IMG/VR virus record: IMGVR_UViG_3300009082_000959
Direction: 5' to 3' (one strand)
Origin: a virus
Taxonomy: Duplodnaviria; Caudoviricetes
Length of the DNA stretch: 64,000 bases
A program made the position numbers and the translations under genes. Below the pieces are notes generated by a model that saw nothing but the letters and a program-made list of their open reading frames with translations, was not told the origin of the DNA and made no database searches. This document shows, in pieces, positions 40,241 through 61,000 of this stretch; within the stretch, counting starts at the first letter, position 1, and every line of letters begins with the position of its first letter.

Positions 40241-41008
40241 ATGAATATAAATGAGTTACTTGAGTCAATTGACAAAATATCAAAACTAAGTGGTTTGTCT
40301 AAGCCATTCATGGTTGGCGGCGTTCCAAGAGATCGTTTTTTGGGAAAGCTAGGAAAGCCCTCGGAAATAAAGGATGTTGATATTACAACAGGAAACAATG
40401 ATTCAAGAAAGCTTGCAGAAATATTGCATAAGAAATTTCCCAAAAGCACGTATAGGGAATACGATGACGGCCATATTTCATTAGATATATTTGGATTACA
40501 CATAGATTTCTCAAGTAATTTTGTTGCCCCTGGGGTATCCGAAGAATTGGCTAAAGCCGGAGTTACAGGTATATCACCAATGTTGCTTGAGGTTTATAGT
40601 CGAGATTTTACAATTAATACTCTGCTAGAGGATTTAGCTTTCTCAGGAATCTATGATTTAACAAAAGAGGGCATAAAGGACTTAAAAACCGGTGTAGTAA
40701 GGTGCCCAATAGATCCAGAAATAACAATAGGTGTTGATCCACGAAGAATATTGCGAGCAATTAAATTTTCAATAAAATATGGGTTTACAATTGAAGAAAA
40801 TCTTAAAAATGCTATTATGAATAATAGAAAAAAACTTCAATCTCTTCCTAGAAAATTTGTACAGGACAAAATAAGTGAAATTGTTACGCTCGATAGTGAT
40901 TTGGGAATCGATGAATTAATAAAATATAAAATTTTACCACTAGTTCCTTTATCAAAAACAGTTTCAGATATTTTAATACAAAAAAGAAAAATGGTTCACG
41001 CATTATAA
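40241..41008 (+). CDS. Class II nucleotidyltransferase (CCA/poly(A) polymerase family), divergent
   Basis: VGGVPRD, DVD catalytic pair, RDFTIN, DPRRILRAIKF; templating motif reads LEVYSRD instead of EDxxRRD. Confidence 0.88.
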   Translation: MNINELLESIDKISKLSGLSKPFMVGGVPRDRFLGKLGKPSEIKDVDITTGNNDSRKLAEILHKKFPKSTYREYDDGHISLDIFGLHIDFSSNFVAPGVSEELAKAGVTGISPMLLEVYSRDFTINTLLEDLAFSGIYDLTKEGIKDLKTGVVRCPIDPEITIGVDPRRILRAIKFSIKYGFTIEENLKNAIMNNRKKLQSLPRKFVQDKISEIVTLDSDLGIDELIKYKILPLVPLSKTVSDILIQKRKMVHAL

Positions 41009-44627: not shown

Positions 44628-46502
44628 ATGTCAGCAAACAAGTTATTTACAACGGCAGAACAATGGTTTGAAGACCTAAAAAAAGAAGTCTTAAAGATAG
44701 ACCCAGTGTCGTTTGCTGAAAACTATCTTGTCGTAGACGGAAAACCACTAAAACTTGGCGGCGGGACCGGCTGGAAATACCTTACTGATATTTACAGGTA
44801 CATGGCAACGAAAGCCATGGAAGAAGATGGGAAACCCGTAGTATGTGTTAAGGGTCGTCAGGTAGGCGCAACAACTGCCGCCACTGCACTTGAACTTTTT
44901 TTTTGCACCAGCGGGCTATACGGAACATCTCCAAATAAACCACCAATAAGACTTCTTCATTGTTTTCCTGCACTAGCTCTTGTGCAAAAATTCGCAAAAG
45001 ATAAATTAAGTACAATGATGAGAACATCAAAGGATAATTATATCCTTAATCATTCTCTTGGCTACGACGCTGAATCAAAGAAAAAGAGAATTGATGTTCC
45101 AGAAGATACTCTCACAGAAAAACAATTCACCAATGAAAATAGGCTTTGGGTTGATTCCAACGCCAATGATGCTCAAAGACTTCATGGTATGTCTTTGGAT
45201 GGTATTTTCTATGATGAGGTTCAGAGAATGAACCAAGATGACATAGGAAATAGCAAAAGAACCCTAACATCTGCTCGATATGGGCCCCGCGGACAAGGAA
45301 TCCAGATGTATTTTGGCACTCCTTTGCAGCGCGGTTCAAATTTTCACAAAATGTGGGAATCCTCTGACAAAAGATATTATCATCTTGGGTGTGAAAATTG
45401 TGGTCATTATTTTATGCTATATTCTCCTGGGAATGATGATTGGGAGAAAATATGGCTATATGCTAATGTTGTGGCTTGTCCAAAGTGTCACCACGAACAG
45501 GATAAAGTTGATGCAATAGAGCGCGGTAAATGGATTCCAATGCAACCAGTTCTGCCAGACGGAAAGGAACCACAGTATGTTGGATTTCATTTTAATCAAT
45601 TGCTGATACCAAATTTTCATAAAGAAACGGTCATTAAAGAAAAACCAGGAATACATCCAACAAACTCAGAGCGCATTTGGCAAAACGAAATATTAGGAGA
45701 GTTTTACAGTGGTGAAGATTTGCCAATGTCGGAAGAAGAAATATATAAGTATTGTAGAGATATAGACAGAAGCATTTCATTTGGAGGCCCAGGCACATCC
45801 ATAAAAAGAGTGCAAAGCAACAAGATTTATTCTTCGAGTAAAATTCCCACTTTTTTGGGCATCGACTGGGGTGGTAAAATAGACGATCCAAATTCCAAGA
45901 TAGGAAAATCGTTTTCTTGTATGGCAATTATATCTGTTGATAAGGATGCGGTAGTGAGAATAGAGAATGCATTTAAACTAAAAAAGAATGATTTGCAACA
46001 CAAAAAAGATGTAGTAAGGGAAATGTTCAGAAGATTTGATATCAATTGCGCTGTCGCAGACTTAGGTCATGGTAATGATATAGTTCCAGAGCTTCAGGGG
46101 GAATTTGGAAACAGGTTAATAGGAAGCATAAGCAGTGGTAGTCTAACTAATCCAACGAAATATGACCCAGAGGAACTAAGACTGATTATAAATCATCACG
46201 TATTACTGGAAGATTTATTCGCGCATATGAGAAAGGGTAAAGTATTATTTCCATGGAAAAGTTATGAGCAAATTCAGTGGCTTATAGAGCACTGCTGTTC
46301 AATGGAAAAAGAAATACACACAGTTCAGGGTCGAGTCATATCAAGATTTGTAAAGGGTACCGGACCCAACGACGGTCTTATGGCTCTCCTATATGCCTAT
46401 TTGGCGTATAAATTTTATCTAACGCAAGGGTTTACGATAAAGGCCCACCAACTAAATGCAAAAAGTGCCGGACCAATATTGGCTTATTTGCCAAGTTTTT
46501 AA
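44628..46502 (+). CDS. terL: Terminase large subunit
   Basis: KGRQVGATT Walker A variant, IFYDE Walker B, FGTP, CENC...CPKC, nuclease GIDWG. Confidence 0.9.
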   Translation: MSANKLFTTAEQWFEDLKKEVLKIDPVSFAENYLVVDGKPLKLGGGTGWKYLTDIYRYMATKAMEEDGKPVVCVKGRQVGATTAATALELFFCTSGLYGTSPNKPPIRLLHCFPALALVQKFAKDKLSTMMRTSKDNYILNHSLGYDAESKKKRIDVPEDTLTEKQFTNENRLWVDSNANDAQRLHGMSLDGIFYDEVQRMNQDDIGNSKRTLTSARYGPRGQGIQMYFGTPLQRGSNFHKMWESSDKRYYHLGCENCGHYFMLYSPGNDDWEKIWLYANVVACPKCHHEQDKVDAIERGKWIPMQPVLPDGKEPQYVGFHFNQLLIPNFHKETVIKEKPGIHPTNSERIWQNEILGEFYSGEDLPMSEEEIYKYCRDIDRSISFGGPGTSIKRVQSNKIYSSSKIPTFLGIDWGGKIDDPNSKIGKSFSCMAIISVDKDAVVRIENAFKLKKNDLQHKKDVVREMFRRFDINCAVADLGHGNDIVPELQGEFGNRLIGSISSGSLTNPTKYDPEELRLIINHHVLLEDLFAHMRKGKVLFPWKSYEQIQWLIEHCCSMEKEIHTVQGRVISRFVKGTGPNDGLMALLYAYLAYKFYLTQGFTIKAHQLNAKSAGPILAYLPSF

Positions 46503-47192: not shown

Positions 47193-50100
47193 ATGGAAAT
47201 ACGAAGAGGTCCATGGAAACCTGCTACAACCAATAAAGTAGCAACAGTAAAATCCAGTAGGTTCGGTGCGCGTCCAGCAACTGTTCTTAGTCCTGGTGTA
47301 TCAAATTCAGAGCACCATTTGGCTAATCGGCAGGCAGATACTGGCGCTATTCCCGAAAAAGTGTCAGAGTTTAGACAGGCAGAAATAATTAGAGCGACAG
47401 GATCCTCAAACAACCAAATCAAAGAGTCGCCTGCTCCATTATTATTATATAGTAATTCGTTCAAAAAATCTCAAGAAATAAAAGAAAATTTCCTGAGAAA
47501 AAGTGCCGCGTCTGTGACTTCTGGTGGATATAGTTCTGCTGGCGGCGGAACAACCATACAGGCACCAGAAATATATTCTCCACTATTTCAAATTGCAAAC
47601 CTACAGCTTCCGCGCGAAAGAATAACAATGAATGCGTGGAATAGAAATTTTTATGATACACATCCATTGGTTCACAACTGCATTAATTTGCACGCAACTT
47701 ATCCAATTAATAAAATAAACATTAAGTGCAAAGATGGCAAAATAGAACAATTTTTTAAGGATATGGCAGAGAACATAGACTTAATAGGTGTTTTGCAGGG
47801 AATGGCACTTGAGATTTTTAAGATTGGTGAGTGTTTCCCCTATGCCGAGTTGGATGAAAGAACTGGTGCTTGGAAAAGTATCGTAATTCAAAACCCAGAC
47901 TACATCCACATAAAAACATCTGTATTGGGAGGTGATCCAGTAATATCACTATCACCAGATGCGGCACTAAAACGATTGGTTCAAAGTAATAATCCAGCAG
48001 ACATACAATTAAGAAGCCAAATAGACGATGAAATTCTATATCACATTCGTAAGGGAAACAACATTCCTTTGGATAATTTTCACATAAGTCATTTGGCCCT
48101 TAAATCAGCTCCCTACGATGTGCATGGAACATCTCCAATAGTTACTGTCTACAAAGATCTTATGCTGTATGACAAACTTAGGGAGTGTTATTCTTCCGAT
48201 ACAGAAGTTTTGACTGATTCTGGTTTTATGAATGGTCTTGAATTGTCATTAAAGTATAAGAACAGTAATCAAAGCGATTTGCCATCTATTGCTTGTTTTA
48301 ATTCAGAAACAGAGATGGTTGAGCATCATAAACCAATAAAAACACATATATCAGAATATAATGGAAATATGTATAGGTTTAAGGGTAAAAAAGTAGATAT
48401 TCTCGTTACACCAGAGCATCGTATGTGGGTCAATAAGAACAAAAAGACTGGTTGGTCTGGATGGCATTTTGAACAAGCAAAGGATGTTAGCCCGTCCTAC
48501 TGGTACAAGTTTAGATGCCACGCAAAATACAATGAAGGCGAAAAGGTTGAATTTATTGATGTTCTTGGTAAAAAAATACCATCGGAACTTTACATGAAGG
48601 TTTTGGGACACATAATTTCGGAAGGATGTGTTTATCAAAGTTATAAAAACGGAAGATATGATAATAATGTTTCTATATGTCAAAATATAGAATCTAAATA
48701 TCAACAAAATATGAGAAATAATTTTAAGCAGTTTGCTGAATTATTGGGGAAAAATCTCGTAGAAAATACTAAGGTGGTTGGGTCTGGGTTTAGTGCACAT
48801 TCTCCAAAAAATAAGTGGGAAGCATTAGTGAGTGGTAAGGATTTAGTAAATTACTTCAAAAAAGAAATTGGAACAAATGATGTTTGTAATTCCGGAACCA
48901 AAAGAATTCCTAGGTGGATATTTGGACTACATTCTGATTTGTTAAAGTGTTTGTTGGAATCATTAATGGAGGGCGACGGGCATTTTTCAAGTAGTTTGTA
49001 TAATACAACATCAAAAGGCTTTCGTTATGACACTGGCTCAAAACAACTAGCAGATGATGTATATGAGTTAGTCTATCGCCTTGGATTTGTTCCGTTATTG
49101 CGAACAGTAGATAGGACTGGAGAAAATACTGGGAAAAATTTATTAGAATACTCTGTCTCTTGGTCAAACACACATTATGGCCGTGAGCCGCGTGTGTATG
49201 GAAAATCAGATTCAAAGCATCACGGTGCCCATATTGGTCAAACAGATTATGATGGTTTAGTTTGGTGCTTCGAAGTTCCTACTGGATTATTTATAACACG
49301 CAGAAATGGCAAAATAACTATTCAGGGAAACTCTAAATATGCACAGGCTGATAGCCTTGTAAATCCAATTACACTAATAAAAGTTGGTGGGGCTGGAGAA
49401 GGAGAATACAAAGCAACCGGTGATGACTTGGAGAAATGGCGTCAAATAATGGAGTGTCATGATGAAGAGACCGAGGTATTGACTGACCACGGTTTTAAGA
49501 AGTTTTTTGATGCAATTGATTACACAAGGAGCGATGATGTTGCTGTTTACACTGCATCACCAAAGACTGGAATAAAAATAGCTTGTTTTAATAATGATAC
49601 AAAACAACTTGAGTATCATATTCCATCCAGAGCTACTTTATATGATTATTCTGGAGAAATGTATCATTTCAGTGGCGGAAAATTAGATATCAAAGTTACA
49701 CCCAATCACAGAATGCTTGTTACAAGAAAACTAAAGAAAGGTTGGTCTAATAGTGAGATAATTACTGCTGAAAACCTTTCACTGGGGACACACTATAGGT
49801 TTAGGTCAGTCGCAAAATTCAACGGTGAAGAAAAAGAATCAATTAATGTTTGTGGGAAAAGTATAAAAACTGATGATTATTTGGAATTTTTGGGAAATGT
49901 TATAAGTGAGGGATATGTTTGTAAGATAAATGACAAGTATTATAATAGCATAACATTATATCAAGAAAATTGTTCTCCAGAAAAAAATAGTATGGAAACC
50001 AATTTAGAAAAAATAGCAAATTGTTTTGGGAAAACCATACAATCAAAAACAATTGATAATAGCCATACTCCATTTTCCGGCACAAATACAAGCACGATGT

Positions 50101-51422
50101 GGCGAGGAATTCTGTGCTCATCTGTTTTAACCAAACATTTGTTTGAAGAAATAGGTGAAAACGGAAAATGTAATTCGCACAACAAACGCATTCCAAGGTG
50201 GATTTATTCTCTATCTACACGACAAATGAAAATACTTATTAATTCTCTTGTCGCAGGAGATGGAACAAAATACACAAGTAAAACTGGTAAGAGTGGATTT
50301 AAATATAGTACAATATCTGAAAATTTGGCAAAAGACCTACATGAATTAGTGTTTTTGGCCGGGTTTGCTCCAAAAGTATATAAAACAAAGAATGGTCAAG
50401 GAAAAGACTATTGGCTTGTTACCTGGACTGAGAGTGGCAAGGGATCATTCCCGCATTTCGGTGGAGTATCAAATAAAAGAGAACAACAACTCACTAAAGA
50501 GCAATATAATGGTAAGGTTTGGTGCTTTACTGTTCCAACAGGATTATTTGTCACCAGACGAAACGGTTTAATTACAATTCAGGGTAATAGCGCTGAGTAT
50601 GATAAAAACTTTAAGATAATTACTCATGCAGGCGTTACGGTTGAAAGAGTTGGTGCTAATGGATCAATATTAGATATAAACCCAGACATGCAGGCTATTT
50701 TAGATAATATTTTGTACGGTCTTATGGTTCCAAAAGCGGTAGTGACACAGGAAGGTTCGTCTTTCAACAGCGCAACTGTTGGTCTAGAAGTTCTTAGGCA
50801 GCGCTACGAGGCTTTTAGGAACATGATGTCGCAGTGGCTCATTAAAAAGATATTTGCTCCAATCAGCGAAATACAAGAATTTTATGAGTATAAAGATGGG
50901 GATAAAAAACTTATTGTCCCAGACATTGAGTGGAATAGAATGATATTGTTTGATATGGATAACTATATCAGTGTATTAAACGGATTGGTCAAAGAAAAAG
51001 CAGTATCCAAGACTACACTTTTTAGAAGCCTTGGTCTAAACATCGATGAAGAGAATAGACTTCGTAAGGAAGAACTAATAAAAGAAGCTATAATAGGAAA
51101 AGAAACAGCTATTCTAAATTCAATGACTCTTGGTGCCTTGCGCTCACTAAAGGCAGAGGACGATATAATAGAACCAACAGACCAGGTTTCTCTACCTGGG
51201 ACACCTGGTTCAGAGGAATCAGGAATACCTGGAATGACTCCTCCTGGCGCCGGCGGATTAGGCGGTGGGGGTCTTGGTGGCTCTCCAATGCCTCCAATGG
51301 GCGGACTTGGCGGCGGCCTAGGTGAGCTTCCAACAGAGGGCCTTGGCGGCCCTGAAGCTCCTGCGGGCGGTGGAGAAACACCTCAAAGCCCAACGCCAGC
51401 ACCTACATCACCAACACAATAA
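47193..51422 (+). CDS. Portal protein containing two inteins (about 649 aa after splicing)
   Basis: Position after terL; extein motifs PEIYSPL, IGECFPY, IQNPDYI; Gly/Pro-rich tail; the portal call rests mainly on context. Confidence 0.8.
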   Translation: MEIRRGPWKPATTNKVATVKSSRFGARPATVLSPGVSNSEHHLANRQADTGAIPEKVSEFRQAEIIRATGSSNNQIKESPAPLLLYSNSFKKSQEIKENFLRKSAASVTSGGYSSAGGGTTIQAPEIYSPLFQIANLQLPRERITMNAWNRNFYDTHPLVHNCINLHATYPINKINIKCKDGKIEQFFKDMAENIDLIGVLQGMALEIFKIGECFPYAELDERTGAWKSIVIQNPDYIHIKTSVLGGDPVISLSPDAALKRLVQSNNPADIQLRSQIDDEILYHIRKGNNIPLDNFHISHLALKSAPYDVHGTSPIVTVYKDLMLYDKLRECYSSDTEVLTDSGFMNGLELSLKYKNSNQSDLPSIACFNSETEMVEHHKPIKTHISEYNGNMYRFKGKKVDILVTPEHRMWVNKNKKTGWSGWHFEQAKDVSPSYWYKFRCHAKYNEGEKVEFIDVLGKKIPSELYMKVLGHIISEGCVYQSYKNGRYDNNVSICQNIESKYQQNMRNNFKQFAELLGKNLVENTKVVGSGFSAHSPKNKWEALVSGKDLVNYFKKEIGTNDVCNSGTKRIPRWIFGLHSDLLKCLLESLMEGDGHFSSSLYNTTSKGFRYDTGSKQLADDVYELVYRLGFVPLLRTVDRTGENTGKNLLEYSVSWSNTHYGREPRVYGKSDSKHHGAHIGQTDYDGLVWCFEVPTGLFITRRNGKITIQGNSKYAQADSLVNPITLIKVGGAGEGEYKATGDDLEKWRQIMECHDEETEVLTDHGFKKFFDAIDYTRSDDVAVYTASPKTGIKIACFNNDTKQLEYHIPSRATLYDYSGEMYHFSGGKLDIKVTPNHRMLVTRKLKKGWSNSEIITAENLSLGTHYRFRSVAKFNGEEKESINVCGKSIKTDDYLEFLGNVISEGYVCKINDKYYNSITLYQENCSPEKNSMETNLEKIANCFGKTIQSKTIDNSHTPFSGTNTSTMWRGILCSSVLTKHLFEEIGENGKCNSHNKRIPRWIYSLSTRQMKILINSLVAGDGTKYTSKTGKSGFKYSTISENLAKDLHELVFLAGFAPKVYKTKNGQGKDYWLVTWTESGKGSFPHFGGVSNKREQQLTKEQYNGKVWCFTVPTGLFVTRRNGLITIQGNSAEYDKNFKIITHAGVTVERVGANGSILDINPDMQAILDNILYGLMVPKAVVTQEGSSFNSATVGLEVLRQRYEAFRNMMSQWLIKKIFAPISEIQEFYEYKDGDKKLIVPDIEWNRMILFDMDNYISVLNGLVKEKAVSKTTLFRSLGLNIDEENRLRKEELIKEAIIGKETAILNSMTLGALRSLKAEDDIIEPTDQVSLPGTPGSEESGIPGMTPPGAGGLGGGGLGGSPMPPMGGLGGGLGELPTEGLGGPEAPAGGGETPQSPTPAPTSPTQ
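48186..49331 (+). mobile_element. Intein 1 with LAGLIDADG endonuclease (382 aa)
   Basis: E|CYSSDTEVLT ... VWCFEVPTGLFITRRNGKITIQGN|S; LGHIISEG and LMEGDG motifs. Confidence 0.92.
49455..50588 (+). mobile_element. Intein 2 with LAGLIDADG endonuclease (378 aa)
   Basis: E|CHDEETEVLT ... VWCFTVPTGLFVTRRNGLITIQGN|S; LGNVISEG and LVAGDG motifs. Confidence 0.92.
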
Positions 51423-52466: not shown

Positions 52467-55400
52467 ATGCTATTCAATAATTTTAAAATTTTATCAAAAC
52501 GCGCCAAAGTTGTCAGTGATAAACCTGCATACAAAGACAAACAAGAAAGTGACAGCGGGAACACAATTTATCACTATGACGAAAAACATTTATCAAAACG
52601 CTGGCAACACAAGCGAGATAAGGTAAAAAATCTCGAAAAAAATGTAAAGAAAATACGAGAACAATATGAGAAGGATTTAAGTTCAGATGATCCCAGAACA
52701 CGCGCTATTGCTGCTGTTGTTGGTGTTATAGATGATACGGCCGCGCGCGTTGGAAATCCTGACTCTATTAAAGATCATGACACATATGGTATAACTACGC
52801 TAAAACTAAAGCACATTTCGTTTAGCGGCGGCAAAGCAAAACTAAAATTCCCAGGAAAAGACAATGTTAATCAAGACCTTACTGTTGATAATAAGAAAGT
52901 CATTAAGGTCTTAAAAGAACTTACCAAAGACAAGAAAAAAGATGATTTCCTTTTTGAGGTTGATGGGAAAAGAATTTGGGACCGTGCTATCAATAGATAT
53001 TTGTCTCCCTTTAAGATTAGTGCAAAGGATTTGCGCGGTTTCCATGCCAATCGTTTAATGAAAGAGTTACTGAAGAAAAAAGACTTTGACGAGGCTTTAG
53101 AGGAAACGGCCTCCATTGTGGGTCATGAAAAAGCAACGCTCAAAAATCAATACCTTTTACCCGAATTAGTCGAAAAATACGAAGGCAAAAAGAAAGATGC
53201 TAGCATAATGCGTTTATCAAAACGCGCTGAACTCACACCAGAAGACTTGGCTTGGGTTAATAGCATTAAGGGTTTGACTGCTGATGTTCCTTCTGCGCCA
53301 GCAACACAAACAGGTGGCGTAAAAATAAACAGTTTAATACTAGCTGCTTGGCAAACTTTATTACCATTTTTGCCAAAGGGTTCTGTGATTACTTCCGGAG
53401 AAAGAACGGCAGATGATCAAAAACGAATCCTGGAACACTATTGGCAAAAAGCAACTGGCCAAAAAATACCAGATAAACTTAAAGCCAATGATAGCGTATG
53501 GTTCCAAGTATCTAAGTCTCTTAAAGAGGACTATGGTTATATAGTTGGACCTCCGAAAACAAATGATCCTTATTCTCACTTGAACGGAAGAGCACTTGAT
53601 GTTTCTGGTGCAAACTTAAATCAAATTGCCAATATAGCGGCTTCTGTATCAAACAACCCAAAATTACCAGTAAAATTTAGAAAACCAGTAATAGAGAAGC
53701 AAAACAATTGTGTTCATCTGGGAATAGAGAACGCAGAATATAATCCTGCGGCAATTAAAGAAGTATTAAGTAGCGGATTGGGAGTTACTGCATCTATATC
53801 TGTGCGTGCAAATAAATTTTTGGATGAAATGGGTTTTGGTCTTGAAACAGAACAGGGTGATTTATTTGAGAAATCACCAATATTCAGGCATTATGATGGC
53901 TACCAAACATACAAAATTCATGATATTAGCGAAACAGAAGCTAGCAAATTAGCAAAGAGTGAACCAGACGAATTCTTTTATCGCGGACTACACAAAGAAT
54001 ACGCTAATCTTGTTCCTGGTGCTTTACGTAGCATGATACAATCGAATGCAAAATTTTTCTTTGTATTTGATTATCACAAAGATGAAAAATATTCAGACTT
54101 GTTAATTTTGGCCGCCGAACTATTATCTCAACAGGACCCTAGGGCATTTTTCTATTTCGGCCTACATAAAAAGTTTCCAGAATTAGGCAGAGGTGCTGTT
54201 GTTCAGTTGATTGATACCAATCCGGACTCATTTTTCGATCTTGGTCTGGAAAAAGAATACAGCGATTTAGAGGGAAGTGCTGGTGCTGCCAGAAACATAA
54301 AAGACCCAAATAAAATTGAAATAGAAAAAGATTCTAATTTGAATAAAGCAGCAGAGGAAGACGACGAAGAAAAAAAGAAATTAGAGGAATATTTGAAACT
54401 TCGAGAAAAATATAAGCGATTATTTAAAGACAGAGACTATAAAGAGTTTCCACCAGAGGACCGCAAAAAGGAATTTTGGAAGCATCAATTTAATCCAAAG
54501 GAAATTGGTAGTTTTCCTAGTTTCTGGGAATATCCAAAAGAAGAAGACCCGGATCGTGAGGAAAAAGAAGAAGACCTTAAAAAAAGACGCAAACAGTACT
54601 GGCAGCACCAATTAAGTCCCACCCGGTGGCTTGGCTATGGCGCTATTCCTTTTTGGAAATATCCGAAGAGTTCTGTGATGCCAGTGCTATCAAAACGCGC
54701 AGAAGTCAATGACGTTGCTGGCGTATTTGCAGTATTGCCAAAAGAAATAGCAAAACAATTTAAGTCTCTTGGTGACCACGACAACAGTGATCCACACATA
54801 ACTGTGATTTTTTGCGGTAAAGTAAAAAAGAAAGATAGAAAGTTGCTGGAAGAAACTGTCAGAGGAGTAATAGAAAACTGGAAGCCCTTTAAAGCAGAAT
54901 TAGATAGCAAGGTCACTTATTTTCCTGCAACCAAAAATTCAGATGGCTGTAAAATAGCTAAAATGAGTGTGAAATCCAAAGAACTTCACAGACTGCACAA
55001 AGAATTAAAAGAAGCGATTGAAAGCGCCGGAATAGAAATCGATGATACATTTCCTGATTACAAACCACACGTGACATTGGAATATTTAGAAAAAGGTGCA
55101 ACAAAATACGAAGACGAAGTTCCGGAAGGCTCTTGGGAAATAGATTGTGTAGAAATTTGGGGAATTGGTAAAAATAGAAAAATTAAATTTGACAAGCACG
55201 AGAAGAAAGCGTGTCTATCAAAACGGGCATCATTCACAGAAGAAGAGGCGAAGGAACTGGCCGAAAAAGGTTCTGATACTTTTTTTTACTATCACCTACA
55301 GGAAACCTACCCACATCTCGCAGAACAGGCGGCGCGTAATCTAGCAAAAGTATCAGCATTTGATTTTTTTTATTACAGACTACACGAAACATACCCACAT

Positions 55401-58400
55401 CTTATAGAATACACAGTACAAAAGTTGGTAGAAGAGAATCCCAAAATGTTCTTTTTTCGTGGTTTTCACAAAACATATCCACATCTTACAGAACAAGCCG
55501 CCAAAAACCTAGTAGAAGAGGATTCTGGATATTTCTTTAGTTATGGACTACAGGAAACATTTCCACATCTTACAGAACAAGCCGCCAAAAGCCTAGCAGA
55601 AAAGGATCCTGATACTTTGTTTTTTAGGAAACTAGATAAAATTTATCCACAATTAGGTGAGTTGGCAGCCAAAAACCTAGCAGAAAATAAACCTGCCGAT
55701 TTCTTTTACTTCAAGCTGCATAAAACCTACCCACAAATAGGAGAACAGGTGGCCAAATACCTGGCAGAAAATAATATTAGTACATTCTTTCATTACAATT
55801 TACAAGAAATCTACCCAAAACAGGGCGAGCTACTATCAAAAAATCTAGCAGAAAAGGATCCTGATACTTTCTTTCGCAGGGAATTACACAAAATTTATCC
55901 GCAACTAGGTGAATTGGCAGCAAAGAGTACGGCAGAAGAGGATCCAAAAAAGTTCTTTCTTTTTGGATTACACAAAACCTATACACACTTTGCAGAATTG
56001 GCAGCAAAAGGCATTGCGGAAATCATTCCTGGTTATTTCTTTGATACTGAATTACATAAAATATACCCACAGTTATCAGAACAGGCTGCCGAAAATTTGG
56101 CGAAAGAAAATATTGTGTCCTTCTTTTATCGCAAAATACACGAAACCTATCCACATATCGCAGAACAAGCTGCCAAAAACCTAGCAGAAAATGATGAGGG
56201 AGAATTCTTTAAATTAAATTTGCAAAAAACTTATCCACAGTTTGCGGAACAACCAATAACAAATAGATTAAAAGCACAGAAACAATTTGATTACGAAAAT
56301 CCCGATCACAGAAATAGACCTCTTAAAGCAAAACAATTAGCCAGTAAAATGTATAATCAGGGATATAAAACCTACATACACACTAATGATTTAGATGATT
56401 TGGATGGAATCGGCAGTATTCCTGGGGAAATTTGTGTAAGTTCTTGGGACTTATCCAGAAAACTGTTTTCCTCAAGCCCAATGACTTACGCTGCAATTTT
56501 TGAGGGAAGACCTTCACATTTCTTTAATCAAGATGCTTGGTCTGACGTAGGTCAGGATGGCCTACGATTTTTGACAAGTATTGGGAGAGATAGGGACTTT
56601 TACGAAATGGATGAAAACCATGACGAAGCTTGGTTTAATCCACTAGCACCAGGAAACAAATTAGTTGGCTTTGCTTTAGTGGGAATACCGAAAGATCAAG
56701 AAACATATCAAGATGGAAAGAAAAAACTACAAAAACTGGCGGAGAAAAACGGAGTAGCGTATTTGGAGTTTGGAGAAAATCCTTGGGACTTGAAAAAAAT
56801 CAGAGAAAAACCTTTAATGAAAGAATATGAAAAACCAAACCCAATGATCAGCAAATATAAAAATCTACCAGAAATGAGAGACTACGCTAAACTGAAACTA
56901 TCAAAACGTGCCGAAGAGGAAACAACAATACAACTTACCGACAAAGAAAAACAAATCTTTGATGTTTTGCTTGAAACAATAAAGCATTTTAATTTAAAAT
57001 CCACCATTAGAGTTGCCGGCGGTTGGGCTAGAGATAAAATACTTGGGAAAAATAGTAAAGACATAGATATAGCAATTGATAATATGTCTGGTAAGCAGTT
57101 TGCCGAAAAAGTATTGCTATTTGCTCGCACGAAAAACATTCCAGTAAAATCAGTTGGAGTAATAGAGGCCAGACCAGAACAATCAAAACATCTCGAAACA
57201 GCTGTGGTTAATTTACTAGGCGAGAGTATAGACTTTGTAAATTTGCGCGCAGAAAAATATGATCCAGAAACCAGAATTCCAACGGCAGTTCCTGGAACTG
57301 CTCTTGAGGACTCATATCGTAGAGACTTGACCATTAATAGTTTATTTTACAATATTAATACTGGGAAAATAGAAGATTTGACCGGCAAAGGTATAGATGA
57401 TTTAAAAAATAAAATAATAAGAACGCCAGTTCCGCCGAAGGAAATTTGGTCACAGGTTGGAATTACAGACGAATCACAAGCAATTACTCCAAAGAAAACC
57501 TTTATGGATGACCCACTTCGTGTTCTTCGTGCAATTAGGTTTGCCTCAAGATACGGATTTTCTTTGGCACCAGAATTAATGGAAGCAGCAAAGGACCCCG
57601 AAGTTCAGGAATCATTTAAAAACAAAATATCTAGAGAGCGCATCGAGGCAGAATTAAGAAAAATGATAACTGGTCCAAATCCTGTTTGGGCTCTAAATTT
57701 AATAAACGAGTTGGGTTTTAGGTCTGAAGTATTAAAACTCCCAGAACAAACAAACTGGAAAACCGGTGATGAAGATATTTGGGGAAACATAATTCAAACA
57801 CTGGATAATTTACAAAGTATAATAAAAGAAAGAAATTTGGGTGAAGCAGACAAGTTCGTTATTAATTTTGCGGCATTCTTGCATGATGTTGGCCTACTTG
57901 ATCCAAAAAACCAAGACGCGAAAAAATTGGAGAAATCCATTGGACGATCTGAATCCAGCGTCGTAGTCGCAGAACATGTATTACGAAATTTGCCAGGCGT
58001 AAGGGTTGATGAAATAGAAAGAGTAAAGAAACTAATAGATGCCACCAAACTAATAGAAAACCAAAAACACGATTTGTCTGCTATTACACGAAAACAATTG
58101 GGTAATTTTGTTAGAGCAATAGGAGACGATTGGGAAAATGCAGTTGATATTTTGGCTGCACGAAACAAGGCCAACGAAGGATTTAGTCCAGAGTATTACA
58201 GTGGAATTAAAAAACAGGTAAAGGATTTTGGTCTTGAAAAAGCCCACACAATGAAACCGCTTTTGACTGGCGAAGAATTAATGAAATTGTTTGAAAGAAA
58301 GGGCGGAAAGTGGATGGGAGACCTAAATAGAGAACTAATTCAATGGCAGTTAGAAAATCCAAACGCAACGAAGGATGATGCAATTGTCGCAGCAAAAGAC

Positions 58401-60275
58401 ATTTATGGTAAGTTTGGGTTAGATAAAAAATCATCTCTTGGCCGTTTGTCTAAATTGGCTAGTGCTGGTTTTTCAGATAAAGATGTAATTGATTTATACA
58501 AATTTATGTATTTGCGAAACCAATTAGAAAGAAGAGGAGACCCGGAAAGCGATAGTTATATTGAGTATTTAGATGAAACTATGAATGATAAACTAAAGCA
58601 TATTTTTTATGTCCTGTCGACGGTATTTGAAAAATGGCTAAAAAGACATCGAGCTATGTTTGGTGATTTAAATAATCTAGAGAATTTTGAAACCGCCGTT
58701 GCATGGTATGTTGGTAATTTAATGGATCATGTGCATGAAAAAGACATCAACAAGGCGGAGCAATACTTACCACAGTCTCGTGATGAGGTTTTAAAGTGGA
58801 AAAATACATTTAATACAATACACGAAATATACGAAAATCTTGCAAAAGGTCCATCCAGAGACATGAATAGTAATTTCTCTATAATAAGTCGCGCAATTGG
58901 GGCATCACATATCCATGGTGATATGTTGTCGTATATTAAAGAAACAGTCGATGATCCAAACCAACAAATTACGCCAGAATTAATGTCTCAATTGACTTCT
59001 GGAAAACACGAAGATTTTAAAGAGTGGAACAAAGAACTGCGAAGAATTGGTTGTAAAAAATTACACTTATCGAAGAGAGCGTCTGTTTCTGAAGAAGAAG
59101 CAAAAGACCTAGCAGAAAAAGATCCAGATAGTTTCTTTATAGACAAACTACACAAAATATACCCCAAACTTGGTGGGTTAGCTGCAAAGAATTTAGCAGA
59201 AAAAGATCCTAATAAATTCTTTTCTAGATCACTACATATAACCTACCCACATCTTGAGGAATTAGCAGCCAAAAACCTATCAGAAAATGATCATTATAGT
59301 TTTTTTTATAATGGATTACACGAAATTTATCCGCAACTAGGTGAGCAAGCTGCCAAAAACCTAGCAGAAAATGATTTTCATGAGTTCCTTGCTTTTGGGT
59401 TACACAAAATCTATCCCCAAACCGCAGTTCAAGCAGCAAAAAATCTGTCAGAAAAAGATCCAGAAAATTTCTTTTATTTCGAACTACAGCAAATCTATCC
59501 ACAATTCGGGGCCCTGGCGGCCAAAAAGATAGCAGAAGATGATGCAGAGAAATTCTTTAAATTAAATTTGCAAAAAACTTACCCACAGTTTTCAGAACAA
59601 CTCATAAAAAACAGACTAAAAGCACAGAAACAATTTGACGAGGAAAATCCAAATCGCAAAAATAGGCCACTTAAAGCAAAGCAATTGGCTAATGAAATGT
59701 ATAATCATGGATATAAAACCTACATACACACTAATCACCTAGAAGATTTAGACGGAATTGGTAGTATTCCTGGGGAAATTTGTGTAAGTTCTTGGGATTT
59801 GTCTCGTAAGCTTTTTTCTGCAAACCCAATGACTTATGCTGCTATTTTTGAGGGGAAGCCTTCACACTTTTTTAATCAAGATGTTTATTCTAATATAGGC
59901 AAAGATGGCTTGCGGGTTTTGACAGACACCATGCGTGATGACACCTCTATTTACGAAATGGATGAAAACCATGACGAAGCTTGGTTTAATCCACTTACTC
60001 CGGGAAACAAACTGGTTGGTTTTGCTTTAGTGGGAATACCAAAAGACGAAAAAGAATACCAAGAAGCCAAGAAACAGCTACAAAAACTAGCGGAGAAAAA
60101 TGGAGTATCTTTCCTAGAATTTGGTGAAAGTCCCTGGGACTTGAAAAAAATCAGAGAAAAACCTTTGATGAAAGAATATGAAAAACCAAACCCAATGATC
60201 AGCAAATATAAAAATCTACCAGAAATGAGAGACTACGCTAAACTGAAACTATCAAAACGAACCAACATTGGTTGA
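52467..60275 (+). CDS. 2602-aa multi-enzyme polyprotein-like ORF (TopoIB, M15 peptidase, 2H phosphoesterase, repeat+ART-like x2, CCA-adding enzyme, unknown modules)
   Basis: Family motifs in each segment; LSKRA-type pentapeptides at aa 9, 250, 444, 625, 741, 917, 1478, 1994, 2201, 2595. Confidence 0.88.
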   Translation: MLFNNFKILSKRAKVVSDKPAYKDKQESDSGNTIYHYDEKHLSKRWQHKRDKVKNLEKNVKKIREQYEKDLSSDDPRTRAIAAVVGVIDDTAARVGNPDSIKDHDTYGITTLKLKHISFSGGKAKLKFPGKDNVNQDLTVDNKKVIKVLKELTKDKKKDDFLFEVDGKRIWDRAINRYLSPFKISAKDLRGFHANRLMKELLKKKDFDEALEETASIVGHEKATLKNQYLLPELVEKYEGKKKDASIMRLSKRAELTPEDLAWVNSIKGLTADVPSAPATQTGGVKINSLILAAWQTLLPFLPKGSVITSGERTADDQKRILEHYWQKATGQKIPDKLKANDSVWFQVSKSLKEDYGYIVGPPKTNDPYSHLNGRALDVSGANLNQIANIAASVSNNPKLPVKFRKPVIEKQNNCVHLGIENAEYNPAAIKEVLSSGLGVTASISVRANKFLDEMGFGLETEQGDLFEKSPIFRHYDGYQTYKIHDISETEASKLAKSEPDEFFYRGLHKEYANLVPGALRSMIQSNAKFFFVFDYHKDEKYSDLLILAAELLSQQDPRAFFYFGLHKKFPELGRGAVVQLIDTNPDSFFDLGLEKEYSDLEGSAGAARNIKDPNKIEIEKDSNLNKAAEEDDEEKKKLEEYLKLREKYKRLFKDRDYKEFPPEDRKKEFWKHQFNPKEIGSFPSFWEYPKEEDPDREEKEEDLKKRRKQYWQHQLSPTRWLGYGAIPFWKYPKSSVMPVLSKRAEVNDVAGVFAVLPKEIAKQFKSLGDHDNSDPHITVIFCGKVKKKDRKLLEETVRGVIENWKPFKAELDSKVTYFPATKNSDGCKIAKMSVKSKELHRLHKELKEAIESAGIEIDDTFPDYKPHVTLEYLEKGATKYEDEVPEGSWEIDCVEIWGIGKNRKIKFDKHEKKACLSKRASFTEEEAKELAEKGSDTFFYYHLQETYPHLAEQAARNLAKVSAFDFFYYRLHETYPHLIEYTVQKLVEENPKMFFFRGFHKTYPHLTEQAAKNLVEEDSGYFFSYGLQETFPHLTEQAAKSLAEKDPDTLFFRKLDKIYPQLGELAAKNLAENKPADFFYFKLHKTYPQIGEQVAKYLAENNISTFFHYNLQEIYPKQGELLSKNLAEKDPDTFFRRELHKIYPQLGELAAKSTAEEDPKKFFLFGLHKTYTHFAELAAKGIAEIIPGYFFDTELHKIYPQLSEQAAENLAKENIVSFFYRKIHETYPHIAEQAAKNLAENDEGEFFKLNLQKTYPQFAEQPITNRLKAQKQFDYENPDHRNRPLKAKQLASKMYNQGYKTYIHTNDLDDLDGIGSIPGEICVSSWDLSRKLFSSSPMTYAAIFEGRPSHFFNQDAWSDVGQDGLRFLTSIGRDRDFYEMDENHDEAWFNPLAPGNKLVGFALVGIPKDQETYQDGKKKLQKLAEKNGVAYLEFGENPWDLKKIREKPLMKEYEKPNPMISKYKNLPEMRDYAKLKLSKRAEEETTIQLTDKEKQIFDVLLETIKHFNLKSTIRVAGGWARDKILGKNSKDIDIAIDNMSGKQFAEKVLLFARTKNIPVKSVGVIEARPEQSKHLETAVVNLLGESIDFVNLRAEKYDPETRIPTAVPGTALEDSYRRDLTINSLFYNINTGKIEDLTGKGIDDLKNKIIRTPVPPKEIWSQVGITDESQAITPKKTFMDDPLRVLRAIRFASRYGFSLAPELMEAAKDPEVQESFKNKISRERIEAELRKMITGPNPVWALNLINELGFRSEVLKLPEQTNWKTGDEDIWGNIIQTLDNLQSIIKERNLGEADKFVINFAAFLHDVGLLDPKNQDAKKLEKSIGRSESSVVVAEHVLRNLPGVRVDEIERVKKLIDATKLIENQKHDLSAITRKQLGNFVRAIGDDWENAVDILAARNKANEGFSPEYYSGIKKQVKDFGLEKAHTMKPLLTGEELMKLFERKGGKWMGDLNRELIQWQLENPNATKDDAIVAAKDIYGKFGLDKKSSLGRLSKLASAGFSDKDVIDLYKFMYLRNQLERRGDPESDSYIEYLDETMNDKLKHIFYVLSTVFEKWLKRHRAMFGDLNNLENFETAVAWYVGNLMDHVHEKDINKAEQYLPQSRDEVLKWKNTFNTIHEIYENLAKGPSRDMNSNFSIISRAIGASHIHGDMLSYIKETVDDPNQQITPELMSQLTSGKHEDFKEWNKELRRIGCKKLHLSKRASVSEEEAKDLAEKDPDSFFIDKLHKIYPKLGGLAAKNLAEKDPNKFFSRSLHITYPHLEELAAKNLSENDHYSFFYNGLHEIYPQLGEQAAKNLAENDFHEFLAFGLHKIYPQTAVQAAKNLSEKDPENFFYFELQQIYPQFGALAAKKIAEDDAEKFFKLNLQKTYPQFSEQLIKNRLKAQKQFDEENPNRKNRPLKAKQLANEMYNHGYKTYIHTNHLEDLDGIGSIPGEICVSSWDLSRKLFSANPMTYAAIFEGKPSHFFNQDVYSNIGKDGLRVLTDTMRDDTSIYEMDENHDEAWFNPLTPGNKLVGFALVGIPKDEKEYQEAKKQLQKLAEKNGVSFLEFGESPWDLKKIREKPLMKEYEKPNPMISKYKNLPEMRDYAKLKLSKRTNIG
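55230..56252 (+). repeat. About 12 tandem 28-aa (84-nt) repeats
   Basis: Consensus YPQLxEQAAKNLAExDPxxFFxxxLHKT. Confidence 0.92.
56203..56908 (+). repeat. About 700-nt direct duplication; second copy at 59551-60259
   Basis: Near-identical DNA; the last ~120 nt differ at about one position and run through the LSKR codons. Confidence 0.92.
59082..59600 (+). repeat. About 6 tandem 28-aa repeats of the same family
   Basis: Same consensus as 55230-56252. Confidence 0.92.
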
Positions 60276-60319
60276 AATATACTAATAAAATCACATTTAT
60301 CAGTAGAAGGAGAGAGTTT

Positions 60320-61000
60320 ATGAAAAAAATCGCATCTGGCGCCGAGATTATGAGCACCATACTATCTTTTACTGAAGCACTCGAAGAAATGTATGAGCAT
60401 ATGCATTGGAGGGCTTCTGGACCAAATTACTACGGTGATCATCTTTTGTATCAGAGACTGTATGAAGACATAGAGGGCGAAATAGATGGAATAGCTGAAA
60501 AGGCAGTTGGTGTTTTTGGGCCAGATTCGATAGGCCCAAACAAAAATATTTCAGAAACAGCCAAAATAACTGAAAAACTTATTTCTGATACTGATACAGC
60601 AGAAAAATTTCCAGAGATAGCAATATCCGCAGAGGAAAAGTTTGTTGAATTGGTTTCTCGCGCGCTTAAAGAAATGGATAAAAGCAACGAATTAACCAAT
60701 GGCATAGATAATATGCTACAGGGTGTGGTAGATAGCCACGAAGGTCACTTGTATTTATTAAAGCAAAGGGCTAATAAAAAGGAATCAAGCACAGTCATAA
60801 GACTGTTTAAGTTGGCATACTATTTGGATAGAAAGTCCTTATACAACGAAGCACGAGAAATAGAAGAAGTTATGCTACAATTGGCAAAACGAGTGGGCAT
60901 AAATCAAGAAGAAATGGTATCACTGGCTGATGAATTGGATCAAATTGGGGATACTGTCGTAGCGGATAAAATAGATAATATGATTAAATCAAATAAATAA
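60320..61000 (+). CDS. Dps/ferritin-like protein with two C-terminal helical tags
   Basis: HW...H...Y...D..AE (HMHWRASGPNYYGDHLLYQRLYEDIEGEIDGIAEK); LLKQRA, then two tag copies; AAGGAG before ATG 60320. Confidence 0.78.
   Translation: MKKIASGAEIMSTILSFTEALEEMYEHMHWRASGPNYYGDHLLYQRLYEDIEGEIDGIAEKAVGVFGPDSIGPNKNISETAKITEKLISDTDTAEKFPEIAISAEEKFVELVSRALKEMDKSNELTNGIDNMLQGVVDSHEGHLYLLKQRANKKESSTVIRLFKLAYYLDRKSLYNEAREIEEVMLQLAKRVGINQEEMVSLADELDQIGDTVVADKIDNMIKSNK

Follow-up and report, generated by a model that had tools for sequence, protein, structure and literature searches.

The DNA analysed here, referred to below as the window, is a stretch of 64,000 nucleotides from a virus (Duplodnaviria; Caudoviricetes; IMG/VR virus record IMGVR_UViG_3300009082_000959). 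Nucleotides 56913-58445 of this window encode a full-length class II tRNA nucleotidyltransferase, consisting of a catalytic head with motifs A to E, a neck and a C-terminal tail. This CCA-adding enzyme module (i.e., the CCA module) does not stand alone, being embedded in a 2,602-residue polyprotein in which a fixed pentapeptide, [LI]SKRA, separates the modules. The most economical reading of this arrangement is that the polyprotein would be processed at the pentapeptide and the enzyme packaged in the phage head, and it suggests that the particle of this uncultured huge phage contains an enzyme for the repair of tRNA ends.

Identity and domain structure of the CCA module

A preliminary description of this DNA, made from its letters and open reading frames (ORFs), had proposed that a complete CCA-adding enzyme is embedded in the polyprotein. 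Translation of the module in frame 1 encountered no stop and contained in frame every motif quoted in that description, and the proposal was borne out by Pfam, PHROG, Protein Data Bank (PDB) and fold matches alike. The Pfam head domain PolyA_pol (PF01743) scored 90.7 bits on the module against a cut-off of 23 (expect value, E=1.2e-25), and in the whole polyprotein it was placed at amino acids (aa) 1515-1652 (E=7e-25), followed by the RNA-binding neck at aa 1719-1759. PHROG 2244 (tRNA nucleotidyltransferase) also matched the module (E=2e-37). An AlphaFold (AF2) model, built on an alignment of 30 sequences, reached a predicted local distance difference test score (pLDDT) of 90.4 and a predicted template-modelling score (pTM) of 0.88, and its top fold match was the CCA-adding enzyme of Arabidopsis thaliana (9kma), with a template-modelling (TM) score of 0.78 over the whole chain. 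The next matches were bacterial CCA-adding, A-adding and poly(A) enzymes, and all PDB fold matches listed down to E=1e-9 were class II CCA-adding, A-adding or poly(A) enzymes.

All five head motifs were found to be intact. Motif A lies in residues 33-45 of the module (RVAGGWARDKILG) and in the catalytic stretch DIDIAID (residues 50-56); its residues G36, G37, R40, D41, D50 and D52 were invariant in the 30-sequence alignment, and the motif is conserved across the clade to which the module belongs (see below). Equally invariant were S91, K92, H93, T96, A97, R112, E114 and Y116 in the SKHLETA element (residues 91-97) and the loop NLRAEKY (residues 110-116), a region in which the best prokaryotic relatives lack SKH and show a 7-residue gap, and the whole of motif C (EDxxGxGxxD, residues 154-163). 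Nucleotide templating in class II enzymes is the task of motif D, (E/D)DxxR; in the window it opens the stretch of residues 199-210 (DDPLRVLRAIRF) as DDPLR, with D200, P201, L202 and R203 invariant and D199 nearly so. The templating role had initially been given to EDSYRRD (residues 132-138), which instead contains motif B (RRD). The C-terminal tail shows in a further alignment segment with 9kma (query 427-499) and in the alignment to the fission-yeast enzyme 9ns4 (query 381-492).

Between neck and tail, relatives of the module carry an HD domain with the intact signature PHH..W.H, HDxGK, GHE and AD. In the window copy the first His block is deleted, the K after HDxG is replaced by L, GHE reads GRS and AD reads AA, so that three of the four elements of the metal-binding signature H...HD...H...D are lost. 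Pfam HD consequently stayed below threshold on the module (E=0.022; 15.5 bits against a cut-off of 22), with homologues reaching 5e-6 to 1e-3. All other clade members examined, embedded or free, keep the full signature, and the HD region was relatively less conserved for the window copy than in comparisons among intact members. The earlier reading of an "HD-like LHD" (residues 323-325) therefore stands as far as the HD-domain origin and the remaining dyad are concerned, while the rest of the domain is degenerate. As judged from these motifs, the HD phosphohydrolase of the window copy is probably dead and the nucleotidyltransferase probably active. The lost HD function might be covered by a separate 2H phosphoesterase module in the same chain. 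Finally, the module has some 18 residues inserted between motifs C and D, as do the homologues P0123 and P0124 and a clade of free-standing metagenomic enzymes (P0007-P0021); the plant, fungal and prokaryotic sequences compared lack them.

Pentapeptide delimiter and genomic setting

The CCA module occupies residues 1483-1993 of the polyprotein. Its first Met is residue 58, located after the catalytic DxD, and no ATG, GTG or TTG is present at the junction; since there is thus no start codon before the active site, the module is made only as part of the polyprotein, and independent translation was rejected. Within the six-frame translation of the whole window the strict pentapeptide [LI]SKRA occurs six times, each time in the polyprotein and at a module border. 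Two variants accompany these strict copies, and every assigned module border of the polyprotein bears a delimiter. Moreover, free-standing enzymes are homologous to the module from its residue 4-6 up to about residue 500, some ten residues short of the next delimiter. Because the module borders match the natural termini of free enzymes, the delimiters mark out a complete protein.

According to Pfam, the polyprotein further contains a eukaryotic-type topoisomerase IB core (aa 47-240) and the 2H module already mentioned (2_5_RNA_ligase2, E=9.5e-12; LigT_PEase, E=1.4e-6). Giant chains of 1,300-2,600 aa carry a homologous CCA module at 46-65% identity, all of them punctuated by [LI]SKRA, and their further domains include topoisomerase IB, 2H phosphoesterase, LigD-type (LigD 3'-phosphoesterase), ligase-type and others. 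Modules of the 2H type recur with the CCA module (P0125/L087, P0127, P0128, P0130, P0014, L082 and the window), often adjoining it, which fits a scheme in which an RNA end is first healed and then rebuilt. The order of modules differs among relatives while the delimiter is conserved throughout, suggesting cassette-like shuffling. In the window, L082 and L087 the topoisomerase module takes the N-terminal place, in L083 an internal one, and P0127 has its CCA module at the N-terminus.

The polyprotein gene is part of a conserved block. Three IMG/VR contigs (L082, L083 and L087) are syntenic with the window (large terminase subunit TerL 75-76% identical, portal 61-67%), and in all four phages TerL, the portal gene, a small ORF and the polyprotein gene follow each other in this order, with the same genes downstream. 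Among deposited phages none was close at the DNA level, and TerL was at most 25% identical to any of theirs. The 162-kb record of one syntenic relative (G001, the record of L082), which is ~40% complete, was used as a proxy for the rest of the genome. In this record the strict pentapeptide was found eight times, five times in the polyprotein and three times in other large plus-strand ORFs (Table 1), and never on the other strand. These three ORFs are candidate further substrates of the putative processing signal. About 6 kb downstream of the polyprotein gene, the same relative (L082/L176) encodes a 1,265-aa protein (L176:7310-11104) that matched a head-maturation protease profile (PHROG 18299, E=1.1e-12; no Pfam match); in the window phage the counterpart of this region falls outside the 64 kb. 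None of the structural proteins of this relative had a Pfam match, and its capsid gene was not identified.

Some neighbouring features stand apart from these observations. The 1,409-aa portal protein of the window carries a LAGLIDADG-type intein (Pfam LAGLIDADG_3, E=2e-11), and the portals of L083 and L087 align only to its residues 1-342, 714-768 and 1133-1345, i.e., they are without the insert. Directly downstream of the polyprotein lies a ferritin/Dps-like gene (Pfam Ferritin, E=2e-4, below the cut-off; PHROG 3636 "DNA binding protein", E=1.6e-12), 60% identical in L082 and unusual for a head module. A second class II nucleotidyltransferase, free-standing and 255 aa long, has a head (Pfam PolyA_pol, E=2.6e-11) and a neck but neither body nor tail. 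With the polyprotein module it shares 29% identity; its motif B reads SRD and its motif D VDPRR, and it found its best PDB matches in fission-yeast cca2 and Arabidopsis 9kma.

Table 1. Coordinates of the features discussed; positions refer to the window unless another record is named.
Feature	Position	Strand	Remark
Second class II nucleotidyltransferase	40241-41008	+	Free-standing
Large terminase subunit TerL	44628..46502	+	PHROG 675, E=1e-57
Portal gene, intein-containing, upstream of polyprotein	47193..51422	+	PHROG portal, E=9e-43
Polyprotein ORF containing the CCA module	52467..60275	+	2,602 aa, single open frame
Region labelled "M15 peptidase"	53229-53795	+	aa 255-443
2H phosphoesterase module, candidate end-healing partner	54702..55214	+	Pfam domain at aa 769-883
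Upstream delimiter LSKRA	56898..56912	+	ORF aa 1478-1482
CCA-adding enzyme module (P0001)	56913..58445	+	511 aa; residue 1 = nucleotide 56913
Motif A: GGWARD and catalytic DxD (DIDIA)	57018..57074	+	GGWARD 36-41, DID 50-52
SKHLETA element and loop NLRAEKY, between motifs A and B	57183..57260	+	
Motif B: RRD	57318..57326	+	R136, R137 and D138 invariant (30-sequence alignment)
Insertion of ~18 residues between motifs C and D (PPKEIW...TPKK)	57435..57488	+	
Motif D: DDPLR, nucleotide-selecting (E/D)DxxR element	57507..57521	+	Module residues 199-203
Motif E: SRERIEAELRK	57630..57662	+	ERxxxE 242-247; E242, R243 and E247 invariant
Degenerate HD domain	57795..58142	+	Only LHD dyad kept
C-terminal tail common to plant and fission-yeast CCA enzymes	58191..58409	+	
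Downstream delimiter LSKLA	58446..58460	+	Motif variant
Ferritin/Dps-like gene	60272-61000	+	Next after polyprotein
Protein with pentapeptide	G001 82259-83725	+	489 aa; motif at residue 312; tape-measure-like PHROG match
ORF with pentapeptide	G001 83703-84356	+	218 aa; motif at open-frame residue 11 (MTGNA-ISKRA, 5 residues after start Met); unannotated
ORF with pentapeptide	G001 108900-115322	+	2,141 aa; motif at residue 316; unannotated
Locus: free-standing enzyme and tRNA gene(s) within ~10 kb	L084:5457-5531		Single tRNA
Locus: free-standing enzyme and tRNA gene(s) within ~10 kb	L089:19721-20707		
Locus: free-standing enzyme and tRNA gene(s) within ~10 kb	L091:19032-20528		
Locus: free-standing enzyme and tRNA gene(s) within ~10 kb	L097:6206-12731		

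Predicted processing, packaging and tRNA repair

In the sequence of events that we propose, the pentapeptide would be a processing signal read by the head-maturation protease of the phage, yielding a free enzyme of ~58 kDa; this is the step we regard as most certain. With somewhat less certainty, the cutting would take place in the prohead, so that the enzyme would be carried in the capsid and enter the cell with the DNA. In the cell, as the least certain step, the enzyme would rebuild C-C-A on host tRNAs with trimmed or blocked 3' ends, and the 2H phosphoesterase of the same chain could open 2',3'-cyclic phosphate ends and so work together with the CCA module. The result would be that translation capacity is protected before any phage gene is expressed. 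Taken as a whole, this picture of a processed, capsid-carried and host-tRNA-repairing CCA module has, in our judgement, about an even chance of being right. Its further extension, in which the polyprotein is a capsid-loaded and protease-released "first-minute" end-repair kit against abortive-infection nucleases acting on tRNA 3' ends, is more tentative, and we would sooner expect it to fail than to hold.

Parts of this scheme have counterparts in known phages. In T4, the internal proteins and Alt are processed by gp21 and enter the host with the DNA. The prohead proteases of phiKZ and SPN3US (gp175/gp245) cut head and ejection proteins at short motifs, removing short N-terminal leaders, i.e., propeptides of 20-24 residues in SPN3US (PMC10052503). 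The known motifs of such proteases end in Glu and their cargo consists of separate gene products, whereas the window motif is basic (S-K-R-A) and some ten modules, with processing predicted from sequence, share one chain. A second parallel is found in phage polyvalent proteins, likewise giant multi-enzyme chains encoded beside portal and terminase genes and endowed with a 2H domain, for which packaging in the capsid and delivery to the host were predicted (Iyer et al. 2017, PMC5512222). The window polyprotein has features of this kind in combining topoisomerase IB, 2H phosphoesterase, CCA enzyme and further unassigned modules within its length. However, the polyvalent proteins are released by an in-chain metallopeptidase, while in the window chain the fixed pentapeptide separates the modules and no metallopeptidase was detected; a CCA-adding enzyme is mentioned nowhere in that paper.

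Regarding the substrate, CCA enzymes of jumbo phages are listed with the RNA-repair genes that mend the 3' ends of tRNAs (Iyer et al. 2021, PMC7824862). Neither the 64-kb window nor the relative's 162-kb record (~40% of that genome) yielded a tRNA gene, so that host tRNAs are the only substrates in view. A repair of tRNA 3' ends at the moment of infection, as the preliminary description had envisaged, would be consistent with the genomic context, namely the constant place of the polyprotein gene behind the portal gene in all four phages, the occurrence of the delimiter in late-region proteins of the relative, the protease match near its polyprotein gene and the recurring 2H modules.

An ordinary cytoplasmic role is the alternative that survives best, and we consider it unlikely while giving it real weight. 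The chain would then be made late, be cut or not, and its CCA module would mature phage tRNAs or boost tRNA turnover in the infected cell, with no delivery by the virion. This is how the free-standing relatives appear to work: members of the family lie near tRNA clusters in more distant huge phages (L089, L091, L095 and L097), and since the 3'-CCA was encoded in none of the 17 tRNA genes examined (L084, L089, L091 and L097), maturation of phage tRNAs is the likely role of these enzymes. The review of jumbo-phage genes likewise treats CCA enzymes as expressed repair genes (PMC7824862), and only part of the genome of the window phage was examined. Against such a role, the polyprotein gene of all four related phages keeps a fixed slot, with the portal gene on one side and the remaining head block on the other, no tRNA gene was found in the 64 kb and 162 kb of this lineage, and the delimiter is shared with other proteins of the relative's late-gene region. 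Moreover, there is no evident reason why a maturation enzyme required all through infection should be hidden in a polyprotein of late structural modules. The free-standing jumbo-phage enzymes (PMC7824862), although of the same family and also from huge phages, are independent genes with an intact HD domain, some of them beside CCA-less tRNA genes, and in this they differ from the delimited, HD-decayed module of a head-module polyprotein in the window.

Alternatively, the chain might never be cut, [LI]SKRA being a linker, docking or recombination-junction element and the CCA module working tethered, whether packaged or not. The lack of any detected peptidase domain inside the polyprotein would agree with this, yet we find it improbable. 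A flexible linker needs no invariant pentapeptide, and the match between module borders and the termini of free enzymes would be left unexplained by it. In addition, the polyprotein itself has the motif 3-9 residues behind its start Met (MLFNNFKI-LSKRA in the window, MRQ-ISKRA in L082), an arrangement mirrored by the 218-aa ORF of G001, and at these N-termini there is nothing to link.

A different chemistry of the module, i.e., CC-only or A-only addition, a poly(A)-type polymerase or a non-tRNA RNA substrate, appears very improbable. Fission yeast does split the reaction between cca1 and cca2, both with scores close to that of the Arabidopsis enzyme, bacterial poly(A) polymerases have the same head motifs, and the second, head-only nucleotidyltransferase of the window might share the work. 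Nevertheless, the module finds its best match, and a full-length one, in 9kma, whose entry bears the title CCA-adding enzyme; its loop from motif A to motif B aligns gap-free to that entry, and the C-terminal tail common to CCA enzymes is present.

Several points weigh against the proposed processing, packaging and repair itself. Since the phage genome was sampled only in part and the record of its relative is ~40% complete, phage tRNA genes may lie elsewhere, and with them the enzyme would have an ordinary role. Within class II, CCA-, CC-, A-adding and poly(A) activities cannot be told apart from sequence alone. The protease gene comes from the relative, where one PHROG match identifies it and Pfam gives no support, and the cleavage, packaging and ejection of family members are predictions. 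The window copy has furthermore lost an HD signature that its relatives keep and sits on a long branch, which could reflect relaxed constraint. Finally, a cell-wall peptidase (M15) module was dropped as an argument for delivery at entry: the label "M15 peptidase" at aa 255-443 found no Pfam or PDB sequence match, also at permissive thresholds, and is unsupported. The short motif SHLNGRALD alone hints at a LAS-type metallopeptidase in this region.

Position in the enzyme family and wider meaning

Sequence searches placed the module far closer to plant and fungal enzymes of the CCA1 type than to bacterial ones. In the PDB the best matches were 9kma (Arabidopsis, E=1.4e-86), 9ns4 (fission-yeast cca2, E=3.6e-66) and 9ns2 (cca1, E=7e-64), followed at a distance by bacterial enzymes (E=5e-16 to 6e-9) and human TRNT1 (E=4e-6). 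The NCBIfam equivalogs for bacterial CCA enzymes all stayed below their cut-offs (TIGR02692, 122.7 vs. 438.8; PRK13299, 85.4 vs. 290; PRK10885, 57.6 vs. 451), and among prokaryotic genomes, one each for 185,579 species, nothing scored better than E=2e-44 at 25-35% identity. With a profile of the family, CCA1-type proteins reached 420-745 bits and the best prokaryotic ones at most 275. The top matches in a database of 5.8 billion proteins were unnamed metagenomic proteins (40-51% identity), and then plants, which were the named matches (35-40%). Over head and neck, the module was 78% identical to its closest homologue P0123, 52% to the plant enzyme and 32-35% to the best prokaryotic ones.

A maximum-likelihood tree of 91 modules (quick search, with support from the Shimodaira-Hasegawa-like approximate likelihood ratio test, SH-aLRT, only) separated prokaryotes from the CCA1-type group (support 100). 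Within it, 22 plant, fungal and protist sequences formed one clade (support 100) with the window module outside; the module fell into a clade of 27 rows (support 99) made up of polyprotein-embedded or fused forms and free-standing metagenomic enzymes, as sister of P0123 (support 98). Clustering with an ordinary prokaryotic Cca, which had been named among the observations that would speak against the initial proposal, was thus not seen. The plant/fungal CCA1-type resemblance noted earlier holds in that these enzymes are much closer than bacterial Cca, and fails in that the module lies in a separate clade outside the eukaryotic one. Judging by this tree, the module is a sister lineage to the eukaryotic CCA enzymes and not a captured plant or fungal gene. 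Recent capture of such a gene by a phage has next to no chance of being true, since the similarity of the head to plant enzymes (52% identity; E=1e-86) on which it would build is outweighed by the contradicting tree, with its well-supported eukaryotic clade and separate 27-row clade, by the HD domain that the latter clade has and eukaryotic enzymes lack, and by a uniform guanine-plus-cytosine (GC) content across the region.

With the plant and fungal CCA1 enzymes (9kma; Schizosaccharomyces pombe 9ns2/9ns4) the module shares the full-length fold, the head motifs, SKHLETA and the C-terminal tail; with P0099, a closely related sequence of Arabidopsis (A. thaliana x A. arenosa), it has 38% identity overall. 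Compared with these enzymes it adds the C-D insertion, the HD remnant and the embedding in a polyprotein. The multifunctional Cca of E. coli type has head, neck and an HD-containing body in common with the whole phage clade; its similarity to the module is weak, as the PRK10885 score indicates, and the window HD is broken.

Members of the family are carried by IMG/VR viral contigs of 133-548 kb in at least three of its clades, so that much of the family belongs to huge phages. When the tree was rooted on the prokaryotic outgroup, the eukaryotic CCA1 clade came to lie nested within HD-bearing lineages, with viral-classed contigs in at least three of them. Forcing all phage-type sequences into a single clade cost 30.6 log-likelihood units (approximately unbiased test, p-AU 0.011), the group having been named after the tree was seen. 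Based on this nesting, the plant/fungal CCA1 lineage and the huge-phage enzymes may share a specific common origin. As a separate observation, three homologues (P0014, P0129 and P0131) open with M-A-x-x-DIDI and five more (P0003, P0005, P0013, P0128 and P0132) also start a few residues before the catalytic DIDI, all of them without the GGxxRD half of motif A; these are either gene calls truncated at the ends of contigs or wrong starts, or cases of a head split over two ORFs.

Phage CCA enzymes, capsid-borne polyvalent proteins and protease-processed head cargo are each known separately, and their combination was not found in the literature searched, where no virion-packaged CCA enzyme and no capsid polyprotein with topoisomerase IB came to light. 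To our knowledge, phage RNA-repair enzymes such as T4 polynucleotide kinase and RNA ligase, and likewise the free-standing CCA enzymes of jumbo phages, are made after infection has started. If a CCA enzyme is indeed carried in the particle, some phages would guard the translation machinery of their host from the first seconds of infection, and this would be a pointer to host defences aimed early at the 3' ends of tRNAs. The pentapeptide delimiter would then provide a simple and testable code for the head cargo of these phages. Moreover, the family supplies many HD-intact relatives of the plant/fungal CCA type, several of them on viral-classed contigs, and thereby bears on the origin of the eukaryotic enzyme.

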